A DNA stretch of 57,125 nt, from positions 1 to 57,125 of the IMG/VR virus record IMGVR_UViG_3300027712_000036; one strand, written 5' to 3'. A program made the translations under genes and the position numbers. The notes beneath the pieces were generated by a model that saw only the letters and a list, made by a program, of their open reading frames with translations, was not told the origin of the DNA and made no database searches. Below, one piece after another: positions 1,882 to 53,620 of this stretch; within the stretch, counting starts at the first letter, position 1, and each line of letters starts with the position of its first letter. Origin of the DNA: a virus (lineage: Duplodnaviria; Caudoviricetes).

Positions 1882-4800
1882 TTATAATTTACATTTTAAT
1901 TCTTCAATATATTGTTCTTCAGAATAATCAAATGGAATCTCATCATATAAATTCATGATTCTTTCCAACGAACCAACCTTTTGATATAATAAAGTTTTCT
2001 GTTCTGAAGAAAGACTGTTGTGCCATTTAGCTAGTTTTGTTGTAGTTTTAACAGCAGGGGCTTCTTTCTTCTCCACTACAGGTGTAACTTTCTCTATAAC
2101 TGGAGCTTCAATTTGTTTTACAGGTTCAACTGTAGGAGTTTCACCAAGCTTAGATAGTTTAGTGTCGTATATATCATTAATCTTATCTATACTCTTAAAC
2201 TGAATCCAAGCAAGTGTTCTTAACTTAGCACTTACATTAGGACCATCCCAATTATCTCTAGTGATATTATTCTCCTTAAGATAGTCATTGATGGTGATTC
2301 CTGTTGGATTTTGGTCATCTGTAAAGATTGCATCTTTTCCAGAGATTTCAATTGTACCACCAATCTCATCATCATATTGTGCTTCTCCTTCAAAAGCAAA
2401 TCCATTTTCTTTAAATGTAAATCTTCTTTGTTCCTCAACCTTTTCTTTTGTTAATCCAGGTTCTACAACTTCAGGAGCAGATTTTATTTCTATTGGCTTA
2501 ATTTCTGGTGTAGCTGCTGCAAGTTTATTTTCTTCTTCCTGTTGCATCATCTGTTGTATTTGTTTTTCTTGTCTAGCTTTATTATACGAAGATATGACAT
2601 CTGAATCTAAAACACCTGCATAATATGAAACTAAATGTGAATCAGGAATCACTTCATTAATTCTTATTGTACCATTATTTACAACAGATGGTTTATTATA
2701 GTCATAATATTCAGAAAGCAATTGACCATCACCTGTTAAATTAACAAGTTTGTATACATGATAGGTCATTGTTCCCTTATATGTTTCTTTTGTATAAGTT
2801 AGTGGGTTCCCAAGAACATCTCTAACTTTTTGATAGCCATAATAGTCTTTAAGAGAATTATCACCAGCTCTCTTCATTATACGATAGTCTTCATCTGAAA
2901 TAGTGCGTCCTGTTCTCATATCAACTCTCACTCCTGTCCAAGGGTTTGTAACCACCCTAGGCACCTTAAGATGATCGTTTGCTAAATAGTCTGAATCATA
3001 TTTTTCACTTAGCACTAAAACTTTTCTATCTGTAGCCTCAATATTATATGCTTCTATGTTTTCAAACAAAGGAGAATAATATTGATAAACCTCACCTATA
3101 ACATCTCCCCAGGCATTCACTTGTATATCTACAGGTTCTTCATCTTTAGATGTTGAAAAGAACATAGGGTTGAATGTAGGCATTATGTTTTCATCTTTCC
3201 AATTGCCTGTAGCAAAAGCACTGTCTGCAAAATGATTAAGATCTTCACTTGCTACTAATGGGGAAATAATAGGAGACACAATAGCACTATAGTCTTCTAT
3301 AGGAACAATGTTTTTAATTGATATAGCTGACTGATATGTTCCTTGTAGGATGGATAATAGTACAATGTTCTTAAACAATTCATTTGTACTAGGATTATCT
3401 CTTAACTCTCTCATCATTCCTGTATAGAGATTCTCATCATATGCTTCTTTTATATTGGCATTTAGTTTTATGCTTTTTGCACCACCTTCTCTATTAGATG
3501 TAACTATCTCAAAGTCTTGTAGAATTTTAATTTCTGGATGGTCTTTTTTAGCAGCAGCTAGCTGTGTATCAATTGATGTACCAGTGGCAACCATAAGTGC
3601 TTGAATATCAATATTAGCTGCTCCTTTAGTTTGTACAATATAGTCAATAAAAGATGTTCTTATCTTATTAGCCACCTTTTCATATTCATCTTCACTCATA
3701 AACTCATTAGCATCTAATATTCTTTCTAATATTGGATCTAATATTCCTCTAAATTCATCCTGCTCAAATTTAAAAATAGCACCCATTGCAGCCATAGAAG
3801 AATCAATCACCAATGATTGTTTTCCTATATGGGAGTTATCTAAAATATTTTGAACAGAAGAAATAATATTTGTATTAAGGGCTTGTCTTGTTCTATATTG
3901 TTTTCTAAACAATGTATCTCCACTTGTAAATTTAGTGGTGTCATAATTTACAGCTTGTGTAAACTTAAAATTATAACTAGCCATCTTAGCATATTTCAAG
4001 AACTCATCTAACACCTTTAACTGTACAGCATTACTTCTACTATCTCCAAATCTTTTCTTTTCACTATATTCTTTAATGTTAGCTTTTAAACCAGCTTCAC
4101 TAACATCTATCTCTGCATTATCATATTCAGCCTCTGTACATATAAACTTAGCCCTTATTGCTTCAAGGTTTCTTTTACCAAACAATCCTTTTTGACCATG
4201 GTTCTCAAGCATTGTTATATATTCAGAAATAATAGGCTGAGCTAAGAAATATGCACCTCTTTCCCCACACCCAATTCTTTCTAATAACATAGTTGTTCCT
4301 ATGATTAGATCGTTTGATATGATTTTAAGAATGTAAGGATCTTTTGACACATCCACAAATGATGTTGCATATCCAGAAAGTCTTGCAGAAATAAGTTCTT
4401 TACTATTTTTAACTGTTCTTCCTGATAGAGAGGGATATTCTACACCATCTATAGTCACTGCATTATGTGGAAGAATCACTCTACCATCTCCTAAAAACTT
4501 CTGATCAAATGCTGAAGCAAGTGCAAATCTTCTTTGATCAATAAACACTTTAGACTTCTGTGAAAGTGCATGATTTGTAATATTAACAGCAGCAATACCC
4601 ACCCATCTCTTAGCTGTAACAAATGCATGTCTAAGAGAAGTCATATAGTTTCTATCTAAGATTCTATTTGGTATAGTTGATTCATCAACATCTCTTAAAC
4701 CATCTAATGTTTTAGCCAGCTTCTTTAATCCAGCATCATCTACAGGAGATATGAGTCTTTCAAAGTTTTCAGGAAGTGTAATCATCTTCTCAAGAGAATC

Positions 4801-7800
4801 ATAGTATTCATTCTCAAGAGCTTTCTTGTACATACTTTTTACAAACTTTTCCTTAAGAGCAGCTTGCATATTTTCATTTCCAAACTCTTCTAGTTGTTTT
4901 GCTATATCACCAGAAAGATCTGAACCATCTGTATATTCTTCCATTAAGCTATCTATCATGTCAGAGTATTTCTCCATAAGACCTTTTGGATCATCAAGTC
5001 CTAATGTCATAATATCTACAGCTTCTAACAGTTCTCCTTTCTTAACTATATTACCTTCAAGCTTTTGATCAAATACAGTGCTGAAGAATTCTTTTGTAGC
5101 TTCTTCACTTCCTTGATATTTAATTAAACGTATATTACCACTCTTATCTGTGTATATGGATTTAAGATACATGTTTAGTTTATCTATATCAAAATCCGAT
5201 CCAGCCTTAGTGGTTATTTCTGAAGGAACTACCACTGTAGCACCCATGTATTGAGGAAGAAAACCTTTCACTCTAAATGTTTCTGCAGAAGATAGAGATT
5301 GTGTAGGAATACGGAAACCTATTCCTCTTAATATACTTCTTCCTTCATCTGTTTTATTTAGGTAGGTTAGTATATCCTTATCAGTTTTATATTTTCCTTT
5401 ACTAAGTTTTTCTTTAAACCAGTAAGGAAGCATGATTTCACAATAAGGATCTTTTTCAGTGTAAAACTTTAATGTATCATCTGTTAATACAACATCTTTC
5501 TTTTGCTCCTCTGTAAGAGAATTGTATTGTGATTGTGAAAGTTTCATCCAGTTTCCTTTATCATCTTTCATCGCAATGCCTCTATTCTTAGTGGCCTTTT
5601 CAAACATTGTAACAGGAACCTGTACGTGAGCACCACCAGCCATCTTTGGACGATCAATAGCTTTATCAACCATTGAATAGATAATACTTCTTATTTGCAT
5701 ATAAGAAGGAGAAGCTTCAAATGGAATTCTAAATTGGTTATTTTCATCAAGCTGTATAGTGTCTTTAGCATTATCTGCCATCTCTCTTCTTAGCATTTCA
5801 TGCATAAGAGTTTCAGAAACAGATCTACCATCCTTCATTATAAACTCACCATTGATTTCCTCAATACCAAGTTTAAGAAGAAGTTCATTATATGCATTCT
5901 CATGCATCATATTTAATAGTTCAACATTACGATTGTATTCTTTTTGAGCTGCCTCACTCGCAACACCATTATCAAAAAGATCCATACTTGCAATCTTCGT
6001 AAGCTGAGATCCTCTAGTTTGTTGTTTCTCACCCTCTTGTGTAGTTTCCACCTGAATACCATAGATTTTCCAAGGAACCTGTATCTTGTTATTGAAAGCA
6101 GACTCATTAAAAGAACCATCTGTATTATACAATGAATATAATTCTTCAGCACCTTCCTTTCTACCACTCTCCATAATGATATATCCTGTATCTCTTTCTT
6201 TCATCTTCAGGTATAACTTTTCAAGATTGGTGTCTTCCACCATGCTATAATAAATAGGCATCTGAGAAAACTTATCTAACACCTGATCAAAGATGTTTTT
6301 ATTGTGCTTGTTTCCAGATACAATAGGTTTAAGAACTTCTATTGTATATTTAGGAGAATCTTTCTCAATCATCTTAGCATCTTGTTTCTTAAGAGCTTCG
6401 TTTGAATAAGTGTATTTTCCTTTCTCTGCAAGTTTGTTTCTTGTGTAAGCCATTTGCCATTGATGAAAAGCTTCTGCTTCATCAGACCATTGACCGTTCT
6501 TTTGTTTAATCTCTCTGTATGTACCATCCATAAGCCATGACATTGCATCAGCTTCATTTGTACGTCCATATGCAGAAACTAATGCAGCCAGACTACCAGC
6601 TACATTCACATCCTTAACTGTAACAGTGTTAGTGTAAGACTTGTGTTGATGATATCCAAAATCTTTAGGAGTTAGTTTAATGTCACCTGCTTTGTTATAT
6701 TTATCATTGAGATGATTATTAAACTCAGGAGAATCAAATGTAGTTCTTCTAGGAGAAAGGAAAGATTTAATACGCTTAGTTTCCTCTAGCTGACCATCCT
6801 TAATAGCAAATTGAAAAGGATCACCAAATAAGATTTTATGATATTCTATGTTATTAATTATATAGTTTGCATTTGCAAAGCCAATAATGCTATGTAATTC
6901 TTGTTCTGATAATTTATTCTTATTTAGTCTAGATTGTCTTCCTTTACTTTCTCTTTGTAAAAACTTATCATCAAGACCTTTATATGACCAACCTTCTTTA
7001 GTGGATAACACTTGTTGACCTTTTTGAAGAATGTCTATTGTCTCATCTACAGTGTTTGCTATATAGGTTTGTATAGATTCTTGAATATCAACTAAATTAT
7101 CTTTAATAAACTTATCAATTTCTGCCTGTGTAGCATTTGTAGAAATTAGATTATTTACACCAATTAATGTTTTTGGAGAAAGAATATCCTTAAAGAAACG
7201 TAATTCTTTAGCTCTGTCTTTAATACTTTTTAAACGTTCTCTATTTTTAAAATCCATTGCTAATGCAATATCATCTCTTAAATATCCAATAAACGTAGTG
7301 TTAATCTTATTTGTAGCTCTACCAGTTTCAAAATCTAAGAAGCTAATATTGTTTCCAAGATTCATCATCCATTCTGTAGAACCATCTGCAGGAATTAATA
7401 TATAATAGTCACCATTTAGATTTTGATTAATCTCTTGTGTAAATCTATCTCCTATAGTTAGTTTAGAAGTTACAATTCCTTTATCTTCATCCAACTCTTT
7501 TGTACCTTGGATGTATTTAACTTTCATTGATTTAATTCTAACACCAGCACTATTAAAGAATAGCCCACCTGGTTTAAGCACTTGACTTCCTCTAGAGAAA
7601 ACATCATTTAGTTCTGGTCTTGTTATAAGGAGTTCAGCAAGTGTTTCACATTCATTAAAATCATTCTCAAATGAAGATGGAGCATTATTATCACTAAATG
7701 ATTGTCTTCTCTTACCATCAACACCAAAATAGGTGCTATCCTGATTAGGGTTTAGCACCCTAACAAGAAGTTCAGCAAGTGTATTCATTTGGGTGTTAAC

Positions 7801-10800
7801 TCCTAATGTAGCTCCTGTAATACTAGCTATAGGTATGTCACCAAGTTCATCTTTTCCTAAATAAGTGAATATTGCACTTACAGCATCATTGAACCTTCTT
7901 CTCTGGTTTTCCTTTCCTTCAGTTTTTAGTTTGTTATAAACCTCTAATGGAAACTCTATACCAAGGCTATTCAAGAAATCAATCTGCTGTTGAGGAGTTT
8001 TAATACTCACATTAGCTAACTTTTCTCTATTAACGTTGTATGTTCTATTTTCTCTATCTTGGAATATTACAGAATCTTTTTGTTTAGATAATGCTTTAAC
8101 ATTCTCAACCCACTTGTTCTGTGTTTGTTTAATCACTCCATATAAATTAGCAGGAGCTGTATAAACCTCATCACCAGTTTTATATTGTATTAACGCATCA
8201 GGTTTTTGTTTAGCAAATGTTTGCATAAATTGTACAAACAATCTCCAATCTTCTTGTTCAAATTTAGAAAAATCTATAGTGGCATTATTTAAATCTCCAC
8301 CAAGTCTATGAAAAAATCTAACATAATTTGCATCATATTTAGCAAGATCTATAAGTTTATCTACAGCCTTTGTCACTTTATTAGTATTACAAATCTTATC
8401 TATCACTGTAGCAAATGCTCTACTAAAATTTAATAATTTATATCCTTTAGCATAAAAACTAAACTTAGCCTTAGGCATTTTTAAAGAGTTAGGAGTTTCC
8501 TGATTAGTTGCTTCTGTTTCAACAAGAGTTCCTAATGTAAGTTTAATTGCTCCTGGAGACTGCTTCTTATAATCTACAGAAAATGTTTCAGAAGCATAAT
8601 CGTTCTTATTTGAACTCTCATCATTTATGTCACCTCTTCTTTCTGGATCAAAACTAATTCCTAATGGACGAAGATTTTCTTTTGTTCTACCAACAAATTC
8701 AAACCAATCAGCATCAGACATCTGTTGTCTTTTACCTTCTTTAATAAATTGTTTTTCTATTTGGCTAAATACATCTAATGTTGTAAAATTAACAATATCA
8801 AATATTGCTCTTTTAGAACTACCAAATAAAATAAAAGAAGCTCTAGCTGACATATCATCTATAAACTCATGAGTTTGTTCCTCTGTAAAGTTTCCCACTC
8901 TTCTATATTCAGCAGCTTCATTTATTGTTGTAGGATTTAATGTTCTTTCTTTAAACTTTCCTGTATCAATTGCTTTGAACATCTCTGTTTTTAGAGATGG
9001 TTTTGAAAAGAATGATTTAACAAATTCTAAAATCCTTCTGAAGAAGTTTACAATCTTTTCTCCCAATGATCTAGCAGGAAGTTTACCTAGTCTAAAATCA
9101 GCAAAGTCATCAGCTATTCTTTCTTTGATTTGTCTATCTGTAGCTTCAGAATATTCAATTTGCTTACCAGTTTCTCTATCTAGGAACGTACCACTCTTAG
9201 ATTTAAACTCATCAATAAGTGCAGTTCTTTCTTCATCTGTAAGCATTCCTTTCCAAATACCTTCAAATATCTCATGGTATTCTGTACCTCTTAACCCACC
9301 ACGAACAAACTTAGCTACACCATTCTCATACACACCCCAAGCTTTCTCTCCATCATATGTATCAATTAAGTTTTCTAAAACCTCCCAAGGAATATTAGGA
9401 ACATTTTCTTGAGCCCATGCTTTAAACAATTGAATCTCAGCATCAGTCATTCTCTGCTGTGTACCCTTTCCCACTCTTCTGTATTCTTCATCAGGATCAG
9501 ATGTTTTATTAGGATCGTATGCAGCTGTAGGTTGTACAACCACTGGAGCAGCTGGTGTAATAATAGGAGTAGCTGCTAACTCTGCAGCTTTTTGCTTTTC
9601 TAAACGATCATTTAAAGCTATTGTTATAAACTTTAAAAGGATTTGTTCATTTGTATCTGTAAGACTATATGCACTGTTTCCTTCACTATCTTTAAGTCCT
9701 TCTAAGAATTTAATGTAAGGAGTGAGTTTTGCATCATCCTTTGCCATCTCCTTAATAAGAGTGTTAGTGATTGGTGTTACAGATACATTACCATTTTCAT
9801 CGTATGTTGATGTAAACTGTATATCTCCAATAGATTTTATGTTTTCTGTATTCACCACTTTACCCTCCATATCATTATTTCCTATCTTAGTGGTGATAGG
9901 AGGTGTTCCAACAACTGGTGTAATAACTATAGGAGCAACGACTGTTTGTACAGGAAGTTCAAGTCCTTCTAGAGTGGCATATTTTTGTTTGTATGAATAT
10001 GGAACTGAAGGTGATTGTTGTGCTACAGATGTTGACAAAGGAATATTCTCAACAGATCTTTTTGATCCATCAGGATTCACTTGTGAAAGTAGATAGGATT
10101 GATAATTGTCCCACTCTCTTTCCTGTAATGTATCACTATCATCTAAATAGTATTCGTAAAACTTATCATTAAACTTCTTTGTGAGAGAGTCATTATTAAT
10201 ACTATTGAATGTATCTTTTAGTTGATCAGTTATTTCTTGTTCCTTATTAGCAATATCAGTTACATCATAGGCAGTTTTACCTAAATATAGAGTCATAGTG
10301 TCTGTATCTATATAGATTTGATTACCACTTGTATCATTTGTTTTTCTATAATATAATACATTTTGTAAGAATTCTACACTTGCTCTATCTAATGTCTTAT
10401 CTTTTGTAAGAACTTCTGACATTTTCTTTATCACCTGATAGATTGTAGCAGATTCTTTACTATTAAACTTTCTGTTATTTAAGAATTGTAATGTATCTCC
10501 ATATTGTAATACAGGTCTTCCATTAGGAAACTTCAGCACTTGACCATTATGAGAAATGCTTCCTGCTGTAGGGATAACTATCAGTCCTTCCTGACTACCA
10601 ATCTTATCTTCTGGAATTAATAAATTTCCTACAGCATTTCTTTCTTTCACTTTAATTGTCTTTCCTGTAGCATCTTTTTCTTCTGTAACATTTTCAATAG
10701 GAATACCTCTTGAAACAGTGAAGCTGTATAACTTATATTCATTTGCAGGGGCTGCAAATAACGTAGCTCTTGTAAGTTTCCATGCAGCTGCATGTGCTTT

Positions 10801-13800
10801 AAACTGAGCTTCCTCATTTTGTCTAAACCTAGGAACAGGATTTCCTTTAGCATCTTTGAAATCATAATATATCTCAGTGGTGGGCATAGTTTGAAATATC
10901 ACTTCTGACATATCAACTTGCTCACCTATCTTACTTAATCTCTTACCTTCTTTATTTACAAAATATACATCATTACCAACTTGTTCAACAAATACTTGTG
11001 CGACAAATCCTTTGTCTAAATCAGTTGATGTAGACATATCATTTGTTCCATAAGACAGTTGTGTAAGTCCATCCAACCCTAATGCTTTCTCTTGATTAGG
11101 AGTGACAAGGATTGCTCTGATGCTTCCTCTATTTTCAAAGTTTTTAACATTGTTTAAAAACACTCTAGAGTTTCTTACATGAAGAGGTTGTGTAAGAGCA
11201 TTTATATTATCTTCTGATTCTGATATTCCAGATATAAAGAATATTGGTGTGGGCTTTAACTTACCCTCTTGGTGAAATGCTTCTGTGCTAGGATTTCCTG
11301 TAATAGTTGTACCAGAATTAAGTTGTAATTCTACTTGTTCTTTCTCTATCTTTTCAGCAAACTTCTGTAACTTCTCTTGTTCAGATTCTAACTTCTCATA
11401 TCCCTGTAATTTATCAGCAGATATGTTTTGAATATTACCAGCAAGATCTTCCACCTTGAATGTACCATCAGGATTGAGAGCTAACACCTTCACTTTAGCA
11501 AGATCTGCAAAGTCTTGGTTTAATTCATCAGCAGCCTCTTTAGCTTTAGCTTCTGTGTCATGAAATGTAATATCTCCATTAGGAGCTGTCACTTGCCATC
11601 TATCATCAGCAATTTTATCTATATTAGCAATTTTAGAAGAAGGTATTTGATATTCTCTTCCCACTTGTCCTATTTCTTTATCTCCTGCTTTGTTTACAAA
11701 TACATGAGCTGCATCATCAGGAACAATAGGTTCTGTTGCAGCAGTTGTAGGTTCTTCTGTTTTTTCTTTTGGTTCTGCATAATATTTTTCAAAACCTTCC
11801 TTACTTGAAAGAACATCATATGCTGTAGCAGCAATTGCTTTTCTTTCTTTAAGATTATTAACATCATTTCCAAAATTATGTAAATCAACTAGATGTTCAG
11901 GAGAGATGACATCATCTTTTGTAAAATCTTGATTGTTCATTTCAAAATTCAACAATTTACTAAATGTCTTAATATCAGGAACTTTATTATTAATATCAAT
12001 ATTAATTCTTTCAGAAAGACTACGTAAAGCTTTTATTCTATCTTTAACATTCTTTCTTTCTTCAGGAGTGGTTAAGTTATTAATTGTTGCACTTAGTTGT
12101 GTAGCTTGTTCCTCATAAGACTTTCCTAACTCTTTTAAAGACTTTGGATCTGTAAGTGTAGCAAGTAGATCATTATTTAACAGAGCATTTATTCCAGAAA
12201 CTTTTTGTTGAATAGATGATAGTCTATCTTTTGTATCTTGATTGATACTTGATTGATATAATAGTTCTGTTTTCCAATCATTAAACTTGTCATGCTTTAT
12301 TGAATCAAGTTTTTCATCATCAGTTTTAGGATTTATACTTTTCTTAAATGGATTTTTAAATGTATAGTTAATTACATCTGAAGATTTTTTAATACTGTTT
12401 GCTTTAGTGACTAATGCATCTACATATTCAGCAACAGTTTTTTTATTTGATTCATTAAAATCCATTCCAAAGTGCTTTTCAAACTCCTCTTTAGGAAGAT
12501 CTTTAAGCATATTCAACTGTTCAAGTGTTACATCATGCATGTCAGAACCTAAACGTGAATTAACAAAGTTGAAGAACATATCATGTTTAAAGTTTTTATA
12601 CTTAAACACATTTTTGTTTTTAACAGCATCTTGCATATCAGCAGCAATACCTAAACTGTTAACTGTATCCTTATATTGATTTGCTAATATTCCTGTTAGT
12701 CCATGTTGGTTTAATATGTTAATGGAAGCTTGTAATCTTTTTTCTCCACTTTCTCCTTTTATTCTATCTATTGCTTTCATTCCTGCACCTGTAACTAGTG
12801 CAGAAAGAGCACCTACAAACATATTTTCTATACCATCTTTGCTACCAAACTGATCTGAAAGTCCTTTTCCTGTAGAAGCAATAATTTCATTAAGTGTATC
12901 CCAATGATCAGCCTTCTTAGGATCTTTGTTCTTTGATTGATTATATCTTCTAGTGTAGTAGTCAAGTGTACCTTTTTCAGCAGCATACTGTCCACCTTCC
13001 TCATATACACCTTCAGAAAAGATGTTAGCTATTTTAGGTTTTACAAAGTCCCATATCTTACCAGGAACTCCTTCTGTAGTTTTCTTTTCAAATACATCTA
13101 AAGATCCTTCCTTAAGACCAATCTTTCCAGCTTCTTCTATATCTCTTGTAATAGAACTTGTGAATCCTTTCTTACTAGCAGATGTAAATGATTTAAAAAG
13201 ATTATCAAACTGAATAGCATTACTCACTGTAAGAATAGCCATATTAATACCAAACCTAGTATTCATAGCATTTGTTGCAGCATCTTCTATATCCTGTAAA
13301 TCTTTACCAACTGGTTCTTCACCATTATTTAATGGATCTTCTTTAAATTGTTTAACCAATTCATTCTTCACTTGGTTATATCCATCTCTTGCCTCAACAG
13401 CAGCCTCTGTTCTTGCAGATCCATAAAGACTCATTCCATATCTAAATCCACTTGTAAGTTTTGTATATTTACCAACTTCTTGAAGTTTCTTAAGATCTAG
13501 TAATTTTTCTCCTGTAATTCCATCTTTAGATGCTTGATTTAATAAAATAGAAAGATCAGATTCTCCTGTTGAACCAAGAACTCTTCCTAATTTACCTTCA
13601 GCAGAGAATAGTTTATTAAGATAGAGAGATGCTTTACCAATTTGATTTCCTATTAATGGAATCTCTCCCAATCCTTCTGTAACAAATCCTAAAGCAGCAT
13701 CTTGTACAATAGCAGAACCAATAGCACCAGCAGTAAAACCTATATTCTTTATCACCTTATCACCCCAGAAGTTAGCAGAACCTTTAGCAAATGGAACAGC

Positions 13801-14328
13801 TGCCCAATATGGATGTTCTGTTTCATGTTGTGTATAATAGTTAGGAAACTCATCTTCTAAGTTCTTAGTCCAACTATCTATAGCTGCTTCATAACCATCT
13901 GGTCCTCCTGATAAATTAGCAGCTTTACCATTCTTTAATGCAGCAATTGTATTAGGAAGTGTGGCAAAACCTTGAAGGAATGTTCCTACAGCTGTTCCAG
14001 CCATTTTAACTATACCATTAGCAAGTTGATCTACAGCACTTTGTCCATATCCTGCAAAATCCTCATAATCATCTATTGTAGGATTGAATGTACGATATCT
14101 TTTATTTTCTGATAATTCCTTATTAGTTATAAATACACCTTTTGCATTAGGATTGGAATTTCGTGTATCAGCATTCAACTTATCAAATATGCTAAGTTGA
14201 TCTGTACCTACAGCAGGTTGTGCAGTGAATGATGGACTATATGGGATAGGTGCACGAGAAGTGAAATCAAATTGTTTTGGTGGTGCAATTTTGATTGTTG
14301 GGGCTAACTCTTTGTCAAAATCAGGCAT
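1882..14328 (-). CDS. Giant virion-packaged DNA-dependent RNA polymerase polyprotein (crAss-like vRNAP) fused to an N-terminal helical/membrane-like cargo region and a degenerate zincin domain
   Basis: 4148 aa. Catalytic GSDFDIDK motif (5182-5196) preceded by GFRIPTQ, typical of phi14:2 gp66-type RNAPs. HEIFE zincin-like motif at 9262-9276. Gly/Ala-rich hydrophobic helices in the N-terminal 500 aa. Confidence 0.9.
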   Translation of the reverse strand: MPDFDKELAPTIKIAPPKQFDFTSRAPIPYSPSFTAQPAVGTDQLSIFDKLNADTRNSNPNAKGVFITNKELSENKRYRTFNPTIDDYEDFAGYGQSAVDQLANGIVKMAGTAVGTFLQGFATLPNTIAALKNGKAANLSGGPDGYEAAIDSWTKNLEDEFPNYYTQHETEHPYWAAVPFAKGSANFWGDKVIKNIGFTAGAIGSAIVQDAALGFVTEGLGEIPLIGNQIGKASLYLNKLFSAEGKLGRVLGSTGESDLSILLNQASKDGITGEKLLDLKKLQEVGKYTKLTSGFRYGMSLYGSARTEAAVEARDGYNQVKNELVKQFKEDPLNNGEEPVGKDLQDIEDAATNAMNTRFGINMAILTVSNAIQFDNLFKSFTSASKKGFTSSITRDIEEAGKIGLKEGSLDVFEKKTTEGVPGKIWDFVKPKIANIFSEGVYEEGGQYAAEKGTLDYYTRRYNQSKNKDPKKADHWDTLNEIIASTGKGLSDQFGSKDGIENMFVGALSALVTGAGMKAIDRIKGESGEKRLQASINILNQHGLTGILANQYKDTVNSLGIAADMQDAVKNKNVFKYKNFKHDMFFNFVNSRLGSDMHDVTLEQLNMLKDLPKEEFEKHFGMDFNESNKKTVAEYVDALVTKANSIKKSSDVINYTFKNPFKKSINPKTDDEKLDSIKHDKFNDWKTELLYQSSINQDTKDRLSSIQQKVSGINALLNNDLLATLTDPKSLKELGKSYEEQATQLSATINNLTTPEERKNVKDRIKALRSLSERINIDINNKVPDIKTFSKLLNFEMNNQDFTKDDVISPEHLVDLHNFGNDVNNLKERKAIAATAYDVLSSKEGFEKYYAEPKEKTEEPTTAATEPIVPDDAAHVFVNKAGDKEIGQVGREYQIPSSKIANIDKIADDRWQVTAPNGDITFHDTEAKAKEAADELNQDFADLAKVKVLALNPDGTFKVEDLAGNIQNISADKLQGYEKLESEQEKLQKFAEKIEKEQVELQLNSGTTITGNPSTEAFHQEGKLKPTPIFFISGISESEDNINALTQPLHVRNSRVFLNNVKNFENRGSIRAILVTPNQEKALGLDGLTQLSYGTNDMSTSTDLDKGFVAQVFVEQVGNDVYFVNKEGKRLSKIGEQVDMSEVIFQTMPTTEIYYDFKDAKGNPVPRFRQNEEAQFKAHAAAWKLTRATLFAAPANEYKLYSFTVSRGIPIENVTEEKDATGKTIKVKERNAVGNLLIPEDKIGSQEGLIVIPTAGSISHNGQVLKFPNGRPVLQYGDTLQFLNNRKFNSKESATIYQVIKKMSEVLTKDKTLDRASVEFLQNVLYYRKTNDTSGNQIYIDTDTMTLYLGKTAYDVTDIANKEQEITDQLKDTFNSINNDSLTKKFNDKFYEYYLDDSDTLQEREWDNYQSYLLSQVNPDGSKRSVENIPLSTSVAQQSPSVPYSYKQKYATLEGLELPVQTVVAPIVITPVVGTPPITTKIGNNDMEGKVVNTENIKSIGDIQFTSTYDENGNVSVTPITNTLIKEMAKDDAKLTPYIKFLEGLKDSEGNSAYSLTDTNEQILLKFITIALNDRLEKQKAAELAATPIITPAAPVVVQPTAAYDPNKTSDPDEEYRRVGKGTQQRMTDAEIQLFKAWAQENVPNIPWEVLENLIDTYDGEKAWGVYENGVAKFVRGGLRGTEYHEIFEGIWKGMLTDEERTALIDEFKSKSGTFLDRETGKQIEYSEATDRQIKERIADDFADFRLGKLPARSLGEKIVNFFRRILEFVKSFFSKPSLKTEMFKAIDTGKFKERTLNPTTINEAAEYRRVGNFTEEQTHEFIDDMSARASFILFGSSKRAIFDIVNFTTLDVFSQIEKQFIKEGKRQQMSDADWFEFVGRTKENLRPLGISFDPERRGDINDESSNKNDYASETFSVDYKKQSPGAIKLTLGTLVETEATNQETPNSLKMPKAKFSFYAKGYKLLNFSRAFATVIDKICNTNKVTKAVDKLIDLAKYDANYVRFFHRLGGDLNNATIDFSKFEQEDWRLFVQFMQTFAKQKPDALIQYKTGDEVYTAPANLYGVIKQTQNKWVENVKALSKQKDSVIFQDRENRTYNVNREKLANVSIKTPQQQIDFLNSLGIEFPLEVYNKLKTEGKENQRRRFNDAVSAIFTYLGKDELGDIPIASITGATLGVNTQMNTLAELLVRVLNPNQDSTYFGVDGKRRQSFSDNNAPSSFENDFNECETLAELLITRPELNDVFSRGSQVLKPGGLFFNSAGVRIKSMKVKYIQGTKELDEDKGIVTSKLTIGDRFTQEINQNLNGDYYILIPADGSTEWMMNLGNNISFLDFETGRATNKINTTFIGYLRDDIALAMDFKNRERLKSIKDRAKELRFFKDILSPKTLIGVNNLISTNATQAEIDKFIKDNLVDIQESIQTYIANTVDETIDILQKGQQVLSTKEGWSYKGLDDKFLQRESKGRQSRLNKNKLSEQELHSIIGFANANYIINNIEYHKILFGDPFQFAIKDGQLEETKRIKSFLSPRRTTFDSPEFNNHLNDKYNKAGDIKLTPKDFGYHQHKSYTNTVTVKDVNVAGSLAALVSAYGRTNEADAMSWLMDGTYREIKQKNGQWSDEAEAFHQWQMAYTRNKLAEKGKYTYSNEALKKQDAKMIEKDSPKYTIEVLKPIVSGNKHNKNIFDQVLDKFSQMPIYYSMVEDTNLEKLYLKMKERDTGYIIMESGRKEGAEELYSLYNTDGSFNESAFNNKIQVPWKIYGIQVETTQEGEKQQTRGSQLTKIASMDLFDNGVASEAAQKEYNRNVELLNMMHENAYNELLLKLGIEEINGEFIMKDGRSVSETLMHEMLRREMADNAKDTIQLDENNQFRIPFEASPSYMQIRSIIYSMVDKAIDRPKMAGGAHVQVPVTMFEKATKNRGIAMKDDKGNWMKLSQSQYNSLTEEQKKDVVLTDDTLKFYTEKDPYCEIMLPYWFKEKLSKGKYKTDKDILTYLNKTDEGRSILRGIGFRIPTQSLSSAETFRVKGFLPQYMGATVVVPSEITTKAGSDFDIDKLNMYLKSIYTDKSGNIRLIKYQGSEEATKEFFSTVFDQKLEGNIVKKGELLEAVDIMTLGLDDPKGLMEKYSDMIDSLMEEYTDGSDLSGDIAKQLEEFGNENMQAALKEKFVKSMYKKALENEYYDSLEKMITLPENFERLISPVDDAGLKKLAKTLDGLRDVDESTIPNRILDRNYMTSLRHAFVTAKRWVGIAAVNITNHALSQKSKVFIDQRRFALASAFDQKFLGDGRVILPHNAVTIDGVEYPSLSGRTVKNSKELISARLSGYATSFVDVSKDPYILKIISNDLIIGTTMLLERIGCGERGAYFLAQPIISEYITMLENHGQKGLFGKRNLEAIRAKFICTEAEYDNAEIDVSEAGLKANIKEYSEKKRFGDSRSNAVQLKVLDEFLKYAKMASYNFKFTQAVNYDTTKFTSGDTLFRKQYRTRQALNTNIISSVQNILDNSHIGKQSLVIDSSMAAMGAIFKFEQDEFRGILDPILERILDANEFMSEDEYEKVANKIRTSFIDYIVQTKGAANIDIQALMVATGTSIDTQLAAAKKDHPEIKILQDFEIVTSNREGGAKSIKLNANIKEAYDENLYTGMMRELRDNPSTNELFKNIVLLSILQGTYQSAISIKNIVPIEDYSAIVSPIISPLVASEDLNHFADSAFATGNWKDENIMPTFNPMFFSTSKDEEPVDIQVNAWGDVIGEVYQYYSPLFENIEAYNIEATDRKVLVLSEKYDSDYLANDHLKVPRVVTNPWTGVRVDMRTGRTISDEDYRIMKRAGDNSLKDYYGYQKVRDVLGNPLTYTKETYKGTMTYHVYKLVNLTGDGQLLSEYYDYNKPSVVNNGTIRINEVIPDSHLVSYYAGVLDSDVISSYNKARQEKQIQQMMQQEEENKLAAATPEIKPIEIKSAPEVVEPGLTKEKVEEQRRFTFKENGFAFEGEAQYDDEIGGTIEISGKDAIFTDDQNPTGITINDYLKENNITRDNWDGPNVSAKLRTLAWIQFKSIDKINDIYDTKLSKLGETPTVEPVKQIEAPVIEKVTPVVEKKEAPAVKTTTKLAKWHNSLSSEQKTLLYQKVGSLERIMNLYDEIPFDYSEEQYIEELKCKL

Positions 14329-52923: not shown

Positions 52924-53187
52924 ATGTTTATTATGAATAGTATTAAAGTTATAGGAAAGATTACACTTCCTGATGCTCCTAAAAAGCACAAATGTGTATG
53001 TCATGATTGTGGTAATGTATTAGATGATTCTTGTGGTGATCCAAGACATAAAGTTGTTACAGGTTGGACTGATGGTAGGAAAGAAGAGAGAATGATATGT
53101 GATTATTGTGCTGATGAGCAGTTTGGAGACTATGAACCATGTAGTATATTTGATGGTACACCAGATTGGATGAGATATTGTTATTAA
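52924..53187 (+). CDS. Small Zn-binding early protein
   Basis: C..C...C..C motifs; the start may be 52933. Confidence 0.6.
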   Translation: MFIMNSIKVIGKITLPDAPKKHKCVCHDCGNVLDDSCGDPRHKVVTGWTDGRKEERMICDYCADEQFGDYEPCSIFDGTPDWMRYCY

Positions 53188-53205
53188 GGACTATTATAGT
53201 CCTTT

Positions 53206-53401
53206 TGTTTAATGCACCAATTCCACGCAGATATATATAAAACTGCACTGATTAATAAGTAGAGCCTTGCAGCCAATGATGTGTTGAAACACACATCTCT
53301 TTAATCAGTTTCCCAAGGGTGGACAGATGTAGTAGACAAATTGCTGTGAACTTCTGAATGTTAATCACGTCAATCTATTACATCTGAGTGCAGAGGGAAC
53401 A
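53206..53401 (+). ncRNA. Twister self-cleaving ribozyme, type P1, with large insertions
   Basis: P1 UGUU/AACA, UAA, P2 UGCA/UGCA, T2 CC/GG, P4 UCCAC/GUGGA, L4 core UUCCCAAGG, 13-bp P5 and L1 GAGGG, all in canonical order; intergenic. Confidence 0.75.
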
Positions 53402-53431: not shown

Positions 53432-53620
53432 ATGGAAAGTATTAAACAAATGGTAGAATTAAAGAATATACTATCAGAAGTAAAAGAACTTAGACTTAAA
53501 AGGTATATACAAGATTTGGATGAGGTGTATAATAAACTTAATTCTCTTGTTAGAGATGAATTGGATACATCTTTAGAACAATTCTTAGTTGATTATTACG
53601 AGCTTAAGAAAAATAGCTAG
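53432..53620 (+). CDS. Hypothetical early protein
   Basis: 62 aa, A-rich leader. Confidence 0.6.
   Translation: MESIKQMVELKNILSEVKELRLKRYIQDLDEVYNKLNSLVRDELDTSLEQFLVDYYELKKNS

Follow-up and report, generated by a model that had tools for sequence, protein, structure and literature searches.

A candidate twister-class ribozyme from a phage lineage in which a two-helix module opens the L4 loop

Introduction

Twister ribozymes are defined in reviews by the helices P1, P2 and P4, the pseudoknots T1 and T2 and about ten conserved nucleotides in the loops L1 and L4, with P0, P3 and P5 as optional stems (PMC5408937, PMC6154101). In this accepted architecture, extra stems occur only at P0, P3 and P5, and both pseudoknots are formed from L4, taken to be a small terminal loop. 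Here we analyse a viral contig of 57,125 nucleotides (nt) from IMG/VR (record IMGVR_UViG_3300027712_000036; the whole stretch is called the window below), in which positions 53206-53401 of the plus strand hold the parts of a twister in canonical order with an insert of 83 nt between the P4 5' strand and L4. Comparison with its relatives suggests that this element is probably functional, that it belongs to a large lineage of P1-type twisters carried by phages, and that its own L4 loop, unlike that of most of the lineage, has been opened into a four-way junction.

As the original prediction for this locus had supposed, the variation described for twisters does not lie at L4: the optional stems named in the available text of two sources are P0, P3 and P5 (PMC5408937, PMC11662667). 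A high-throughput study from 2024 treats L4 as a loop whose positions 1 and 9 tolerate imperfections, reports P1 to be dispensable and, in the portion available, discusses only P0, P3 and P5 as auxiliary stem-loops (PMC11662667). A search for new twister permutations in 2023 reported none, as far as its accessible text goes (PMC10085705). Our literature search, to which Roth et al. 2014 and the supplementary alignments were external, found neither a structured insert in L4 nor the phage lineage described; the novelty of the insert falls if the alignment of Roth et al. 2014 already has members with an L4 insert.

Results

The core of the window element

Read on the plus strand, 53206-53401 comprise, in twister order, P1, U^AA, P2, CC, AAU, P4, UUCCCAAGG, a long P5 and GAGGG. 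The individual parts, with the insert and the hairpin that precedes the element, are the following.

53186..53204 (+): P0-like or terminator-like hairpin AAGGACU-AUUAU-AGUCCUU, then a U-rich tract; from a hairpin scan; ends 5 nt 5' of the predicted cut
53206-53209 (+): P1 5' strand UGUU, partner 53398-53401; from sequence and minimum free energy (MFE) fold
53210-53212 (+): U^AA, with the predicted scissile bond U53210/A53211; cut site by homology
53213-53216 (+): P2 5' strand UGCA, partner 53389-53392
53217-53218 (+): T2 pseudoknot 5' strand CC, partner GG 53317-18
53219-53221 (+): AAU linker in L2, without P3; linkers in the lineage are AUU, ACAA, AUAA and AAU
53222-53226 (+): P4 5' strand UCCAC, partner 53319-53323
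53227-53246 (+): insert helix I, short form, GCAG 53227-30, loop AUAUAUAUAAAA, CUGC 53243-46; from MFE fold
53247-53309 (+): insert helix II, ACUGAUUAA 53247-55 with UUAAUCAGU 53301-09, variable interior
53278-84 / 53291-97 (+): inner hairpin of helix II, GAUGUGU / ACACAUC
53310-53318 (+): L4 strand UUCCCAAGG; CCC 53312-14 is the T1 5' strand, GG 53317-18 the T2 3' strand
53319-53323 (+): P4 3' strand GUGGA
53324-53386 (+): P5, long auxiliary hairpin, base CAGAUGUAGUA / UAUUACAUCUG
53389-53392 (+): P2 3' strand UGCA
53393-53397 (+): GAGGG; G53393 is the predicted catalytic guanine, GGG 53395-97 the T1 3' strand
53398-53401 (+): P1 3' strand AACA

Each core part is present base for base where the original prediction had placed it, and the same holds for the two-helix insert of 83 nt (53227-53309) between the P4 5' strand and L4. 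An unconstrained MFE fold of 53206-53401 recovers P1, P2, P4, both insert helices, the inner hairpin and P5, at -53.8 kcal/mol compared with -40.2 +/- 3.7 kcal/mol for shuffled sequences (n=200; z -3.66; 0/200 equally stable). Furthermore, a descriptor built from the unpaired core (CCAA, gap, TCCCAAGG, gap, GAGGG) has a single match in the 57-kb window and none in 100 shuffles.

Measured against the definition of the class, P1 (4 base pairs in the window), P2 and P4 follow each other in canonical order, T1 is formed between the CCC of L4 and the GGG of the L1 3' strand, and the window has all conserved L1 and L4 nucleotides including N^A and the catalytic G, a role known for the guanine of GAGGG from the literature (PMC5408937). 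The departure is L4, which is no terminal loop closed by P4, since two conserved helices intervene. The T2 strands are indeed CC and GG as had been predicted, and this agrees with the published 'NC' rule for the T2 5' strand (PMC11662667). However, CC/GG is the norm across the whole phage lineage and is therefore not special to the window copy; the outer T2 pair shows no covariation in the family.

Relatives and covariation

Relatives were collected with two pattern scans. Scan 1, in which L4 and the 3' core were fixed, found at least 119 stretches in viral contigs. Among the matches listed, 126 lie outside the window; 86 of these 126 have UAAUGCA 18-20 nt 5' of the L4 motif and are ordinary P1-type twisters with a long P5, and about 27, read by hand, carry an insert between the P4 5' strand and L4. 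Scan 2 used only the junction of helix I and helix II of the insert, with the 3' side of helix I fixed, and found 76 stretches in viral contigs and at least 120 in metagenome contigs. Insert-type and insert-less sets were drawn from the matches listed, and the scan lists give lower bounds. Sequence blocks were located by four nhmmer profiles and paired positions were read at fixed offsets from unpaired anchors, a procedure intended to avoid selecting sequences by their pairing, which was repeated on all 317 loci from the insert motif alone. Of 173 strong insert-motif hits among the matches listed, 132 could be chained; failures were due to a missing 5' block (20), 3' block (16) or L4 block (7), in part explained by loci that end early. 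After removal of 21 duplicates and 9 elements with a missing anchor, at least 102 unique, fully parsed copies remained, which come from viral and metagenome contigs and, according to the contig records, from several habitats.

The core is strongly conserved in these insert-anchored relatives, a set of 102 gathered without reference to it. The cut-site nucleotide is U in 96/102 and is followed by AA in 101/102; L4 has its U in 101/102 and its AA in 102/102, and the GA of GAGGG is likewise invariant (102/102). P2 is Watson-Crick paired in 100-102 of the elements, with the variants CACA/UGUG, UGUA/UACA, UACA/UGUA, CGCA/UGCG and CGUA/UACG, and P4 in 95-101, with all five pairs varying. The first pair of T1 shows one U-G, the second is C-G throughout, and the third is C-G in 95 elements, A-U in 4, U-A in 1 and C-U in 2. 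The inner T2 pair is C-G in 101. The check by homologues and covariation that had been proposed for the element thus came out in its favour: the core is kept in 96-102 of 102 relatives, and compensatory changes are found in P2, P4, T1, P5 and both insert helices.

A MAFFT alignment (A3) of 59 of the first 61 insert-type elements, which leaves out L094 (different insert) and L079:331-728 (mis-chained), gave the same picture. Here 92.2% of cells were paired, compared with 85.5% after shuffling (0/500 as high) and 35-44% in slid controls; double changes were seen in 31/50 pairs versus 14.5 in shuffled alignments, and the covariation score was 0.216 versus 0.097. Pairing reached 99.2% of cells in P2, 98.3% in P4 (where all five pairs covary), 98.9% in T1 and 95.1% in P5, the last with double changes in 8/11 base pairs. 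RNAalifold, run on A3 with no structure supplied, returned P2, P4, helix I, helix II and P5, with double changes in 26/33 pairs.

One could also imagine that AT-rich intergenic DNA, for example a terminator followed by structure in a 5' untranslated region, resembles the twister consensus by chance, and the failure of Rfam to give a hit would fit this. We regard it as extremely improbable, since the unpaired-core descriptor occurs in 0/100 shuffles and the hundreds of covarying homologues already refute it.

The first C of the T2 strand (C53217 in the window) covaries with the base just 5' of the P2 3' strand (G53388 in the window), the partner that RNAalifold gives it on A3, with C-G in 52, U-A in 6 and U-G in 1 of 59 elements, and among 202 elements a U at this L2 position is matched by an A 5' of the P2 3' strand in 9 of 11 cases. 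A pair of this type would extend P2 to 5 base pairs and compete with the outer T2 pair.

A minority of insert-type copies (L134/L163, L177, L128, L130, L263, L280) lacks UAA and/or has an altered GAGGG; in a UAA-lacking example, CUCUUUGCAC is found instead of UAAUGCACC. Such copies are probably inactivated. They lend themselves to another reading of the element as a non-cleaving derivative, in which catalysis is disabled and the RNA is a structured 5' leader, a spacer or a decaying relic. UAA and/or GAGGG are clearly lost in, for example, the loci named before L280, and insertions in L4 can lower cleavage according to high-throughput data (PMC11662667). Yet the window keeps all conserved core nucleotides, as do the great majority of the 102 relatives at the frequencies given above, and compensatory changes in P2, P4 and T1 are a pattern unexpected of relics, so that we consider a non-cleaving derivative quite improbable and favour a functional twister.

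Scans beyond these collections place the lineage in uncultured phages. The core pattern gave 10 hits in 185,579 species genomes, eight of them chance coding matches; the two real ones are L189, an insert-type element on a contig of a bacterial metagenome-assembled genome (MAG), and L191, a canonical element on a 59-kb Sediminibacterium sp. MAG contig. No chromosomal reservoir of the lineage was evident in this species-genome scan, and blastn queries of 3 kb from the window and of a long-form element matched no GenBank phage record. Because the species genomes yield two real hits and the GenBank phages none, the lineage on this evidence lives in uncultured phages. The bin of L191 is a freshwater Bacteroidota genome, a weak hint on host range. 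A scan for the exact core had a single match, L002, which was rejected as a chance match in coding sequence.

Architecture of the L4 insert

The insert measures 83 nt in the window, and the span from CC to CCC ranges from 55 to 301 nt in the first 61 insert-type relatives. In its long form, the P4 5' strand is followed by the 5' half of the helix I base, G-U(G/A)G, then AUAU(A/G)AAG, the 5' half of an inner helix, ACUUCUUA(N), and a variable hairpin; the 3' half of the inner helix, (N)UAAGAUGU, leads through GAAA to the 3' half of the helix I base, C(C/U)A-C. Helix II follows with its 5' strand (A)CUGAUUAA, a variable region and its 3' strand UUAAUCAG(U), and then (C/U)-U-CCC-AA-GG and the P4 3' strand. 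In the short form, found in the window, L003/L083, L054 and L318, helix I is a 4-bp stem with the loop AUAUAUAUAAAA.

Both helices are conserved by compensation. In A3 (n=59), the base pairs of helix I are G-C in 58/59, U-A in 56 with C-G in 3, G-C in 34 with A-U in 25, and G-C in 58, while among the 102 elements pair 2 is G-C in 61 and A-U in 40 and helix II is largely Watson-Crick. Helix II has 98.8% of its cells paired in A3, with double changes in 6/9 pairs; in L003 it reads ACUGAUAG / CUAUCAGU. Distally, both helices are hypervariable, in sequence as well as in length. Since virtually no linker nucleotides separate P4, helix I and helix II, L4 would become one arm of a four-way junction. 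In crystal structures the first (5'-most) uridine of L4 forms a pair with an adenine of the same loop and is stacked on P4 (PMC5408937), so that we infer a branch between these layers to be a plausible and geometrically ordinary junction.

The insert behaves as a module. The element L102:80-201(-) is an insert-less twin of the window copy, with the same P1 5' strand, P2, CC-AAU, P4 UCCAC/GUGGA, UUCCCAAGG, P5 base and GAGGG, and 6 of 64 backgrounds, defined by linker, P4 and P5, occur both with and without insert. The twin and these shared backgrounds suggest that the module was repeatedly gained, lost or exchanged, and that the core evidently functions without it. In insert-less elements, the distance from CC to CCC was 12-14 nt in 90/90 parsed. 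A different insert of about 42 nt was seen at the same P4/L4 site in L094:12554-12722, consisting of two unrelated hairpins (GAGG/CCUC and AUCAAUC/GAUUGAU), which suggests that the site may have accepted two-hairpin modules more than once. A stand-alone insert domain outside a twister was looked for among the unchained insert-motif hits, and no case was found in those with enough flank, where the downstream L4, P4 and P5 were still present; the 5' core is divergent but intact in L173 and L147 and degenerate in others, while L159 is a threshold miss and L301 a chance hit.

In long-form members such as L020:11194-11442(-), AUAU(A/G)AAG faces GAAA across an internal loop of helix I, and the inner helix contains a U-U mismatch that is invariant. 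The 5' side of the long form, G-U(G/A)G-AUAU(A/G)AAG-ACUUCUUA, which was absent from every scan pattern, is 77-99% conserved at non-covarying positions in 116 unique copies. K-turn, sarcin-ricin and UAA/GAN-type readings of this loop were considered, and none fits cleanly.

The original prediction took the insert for a possible allosteric or protein-gated element. In such a gated twister, the insert would be a sensor through which a phage or host protein or a small ligand controls the docking of L4 into T1 and T2 and thereby the timing of transcript cleavage, an unlikely reading in our view; we give equally little credence to its more specific form, a natural control module in which a factor or metabolite bound at the helix I loop decides whether the adjacent UCCCAAGG strand docks. 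Sequence kept beyond the needs of pairing is typical of binding or docking sites, and it is found in the long form, both in the helix I internal loop and in the inner helix with its invariant mismatch, in an insert that directly adjoins the strand forming both pseudoknots. On the other hand, the window copy, L003, L054 and L318 are of the short form, without the inner helix and most of the conserved loop, and the distal helix parts are hypervariable. Moreover, no Rfam family, aptamer or other, was found at E<=10 in the window element or a long-form element, no alternative pairing between insert and core was seen by eye, and the insert-less twins of the same lineage suggest a core that works without insert. 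Gating, though possible, is unsupported. We prefer to see the insert as most likely a peripheral module that would aid folding, tertiary bracing or contact with a partner and be dispensable for the chemistry.

Genomic setting and proposed function

The window is a linear viral contig with an estimated completeness of 49%. Its minus strand carries a long run of structural genes (terminase, portal, major head protein and large virion proteins), and a group of small open reading frames (ORFs) on the plus strand begins at about 52 kb. The terminase is most similar to that of Leptolyngbya phage Lbo-JY46 (39.7%), followed by Cellulophaga phages phi17:2 and phi4:1 (33%) and crAss-like phages (27-30%). 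A 4148-codon ORF at 1882-14328 (-) adjoins further very large ORFs of 1630, 1130 and 859 codons, of which the 1630-aa ORF matched a PHROG family (virion structural protein). The element lies in a 244-nt intergenic gap between two plus-strand ORFs.

52924-53187 (+): upstream ORF, 87 codons, Cys-rich
ATG at 53432 (+): downstream ORF, 62 codons

Four loci have a homologue of the upstream ORF, and three of the four have the same insert-bearing element downstream, immediately 3' of the homologue in L003 and L006 and after one further ORF in L005. P4 is compensated among these syntenic loci (UCCAC/GUGGA in the window, CUAUC/GAUAG in L006, CUCAU/AUGAG in L005), and P1, P5 and the insert interiors vary as well. 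Window DNA is contained in freshwater metagenome runs, three of them with at least half of the sampled words, one of which may be its source. Inside the element, DNA contigs from related strains end or depart from the window sequence: one freshwater contig diverges from 53220 on, with P4 CUAUC and a short-form helix I UGG/CCA instead of CAG/CUG, which is strain-level compensatory variation, and contigs from two other runs stop or start within the element.

From the observed sequence, fold, homology, covariation and gene co-orientation we infer that operon RNA of the plus strand would self-cleave at U53210/A53211 to give 2',3'-cyclic phosphate and 5'-OH ends. Cleavage would part the message of the upstream 87-codon ORF from that of the downstream ORFs, a form of polycistronic processing in which the P0 hairpin, bearing a cyclic phosphate, would close the upstream message and the downstream message would begin with a 5'-OH and a folded ribozyme leader, 30 nt 5' of the ATG at 53432. 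Members of the lineage lack P3, have a long P5 and are usually preceded by a P0 hairpin. In about one fifth of it, including the window, the 9-nt L4 loop appears to be opened on its 5' side by the two-helix module, in the order P4 5' strand, helix I, helix II, (C/U)U-CCC-AA-GG, P4 3' strand, so that L4 as a single-stranded arm would still be free for T1 (CCC:GGG) and T2, which would build the active site. The original prediction had spoken of an early transcript, a label which no evidence in our analysis supports.

The elements are non-coding inside (same-strand ORF cover 2%) and co-oriented with their neighbours: for 96 elements, the upstream flanking ORF is on the same strand in 77 and on the opposite strand in 9, the downstream one in 92 and 1. 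The 45 nt 5' of the cut fold at -9.8 kcal/mol in the insert type versus -5.8 kcal/mol in a control window 80 nt further upstream, and at -7.8 versus -6.3 kcal/mol in canonical elements (Wilcoxon p 7.7e-9, n=148). This upstream family hairpin corresponds to the optional P0 stem known for twisters (PMC11662667).

In one of the four syntenic relatives, L004, a tRNA-Arg(TCT) at 3276-3348 occupies the slot of the ribozyme after the conserved 87-aa ORF and its hairpin; tRNA and ribozyme of this slot are both RNA-processing sites. As a single case, this fits the idea of processing by analogy. Apart from L004, an association with tRNAs, flanking the element or inside it as considered for L171, was rejected, since ARAGORN found no tRNA within 100 nt of or inside any of 158 parsed elements. 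Several contigs carry two or three copies, in part directly adjoining (L149:9876-10277(-), L178, L138/L182, L113:758-1629(-), L086:7250-8185): a canonical copy may lie directly 5' of an insert-type copy, one locus has three canonical copies within 900 nt, and another has two insert-type copies 630 nt apart. Two cuts at tandem copies would set free discrete small RNAs, each with a 5'-OH and a cyclic phosphate at its ends.

Discussion

In our preferred interpretation, the element represents a new architectural variant of the twister class and is probably a functional ribozyme. Several observations weigh against a simple reading of this kind. The outer T2 pair shows no compensatory change in the 102 elements (C-G in 81, C-A in 11, U-G in 10, no double change), and an alternative fifth P2 pair covaries in its place. 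The covariation of T1 comes from five sequences and is accompanied by two one-sided mismatches. P1 is weak in the family, with 61% of its cells paired in A3 compared with 35-44% in slid controls, and in the inner helix of helix I it is the sequence that is conserved, without covariation. Because a minority of copies has lost UAA and/or GAGGG, not every copy is under selection. Moreover, some of the sequence was prescribed by the scan patterns themselves, namely L4 plus the 3' core in scan 1 and the 3' side of helix I in scan 2. Finally, the twister models of Rfam (release 15, which includes RF03160) gave no hit in the window, either at the gathering threshold (67.2 bits for RF03160) or at E<=10, and at E<=10 Rfam likewise misses 14 related loci, single canonical members, a long-form member and five whole records; class membership is therefore our own feature-by-feature comparison.

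It had been foreseen that covariance-model scans may miss the element, and this was borne out for insert-bearing and insert-less forms alike. A whole lineage of phage twisters thus escapes current covariance models, so that counts of ribozymes in phage genomes fall short. Moreover, natural elements whose loop is split by a conserved, covarying two-helix domain while the catalytic nucleotides are kept are numerous (at least 102 unique copies); they indicate that a branch at the P4/L4 junction can be accommodated by the twister fold and is perhaps put to use, and the natural pairs with and without insert are available for mechanistic comparison. If the insert were to regulate cleavage, the element would be a rare example of a self-cleaving RNA that is gated in nature and sets the timing of mRNA processing in infected cells, and the twister fold would have a fourth auxiliary site at which a pseudoknotted hairpin loop is turned into a four-way junction.

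Among the known systems, the glmS ribozyme is alike in the concept of a domain coupled to folding and differs in having its cofactor in the active site. Engineered twister aptazymes, in which an appended domain is coupled to ribozyme folding (PMC5052635), are artificial, whereas no ligand or switch is known here. Twister-sister has multi-helix junction forms and a P4 loop resembling L4 of twister, but its model, as given in the available part of PMC6154101, has no double-pseudoknot fold and no twister cut-site nucleotides, whereas T1 covaries and U^AA and GAGGG are conserved in the present lineage.

The closest described system is the twister of type P1 with optional P0 and P5 (class of Roth et al. 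2014; RF03160). It shares the 5' part, with P1, N^A-A, P2, a two-nt T2 strand ending in C and a linker, and the 3' part, with P4, L4 U-CCC-AA-G-N, P4', (P5), P2', GAGGG and P1'; T1, a putative T2 and an upstream P0 hairpin are likewise common to it and the window element. In the rice twister, the loop on P4 is printed as UCCCAAGC (PMC11662667), which L4 of the window matches in 7 of 8 letters. P3 occurs in 78% and P5 in 1% of annotated twisters (PMC6154101), whereas the window element is without P3 and has a long P5. RF03160 gives no score at E<=10 for the window element or its insert-less relatives. The main difference is that L4 of the P1 type is a terminal hairpin loop, whereas the window has an 83-nt two-helix domain between the P4 5' strand and the U of L4. 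The insert-less members of the lineage itself (L102:80-201(-), L007:2136-2239) have a near-identical core with an ordinary 9-nt L4 hairpin loop.

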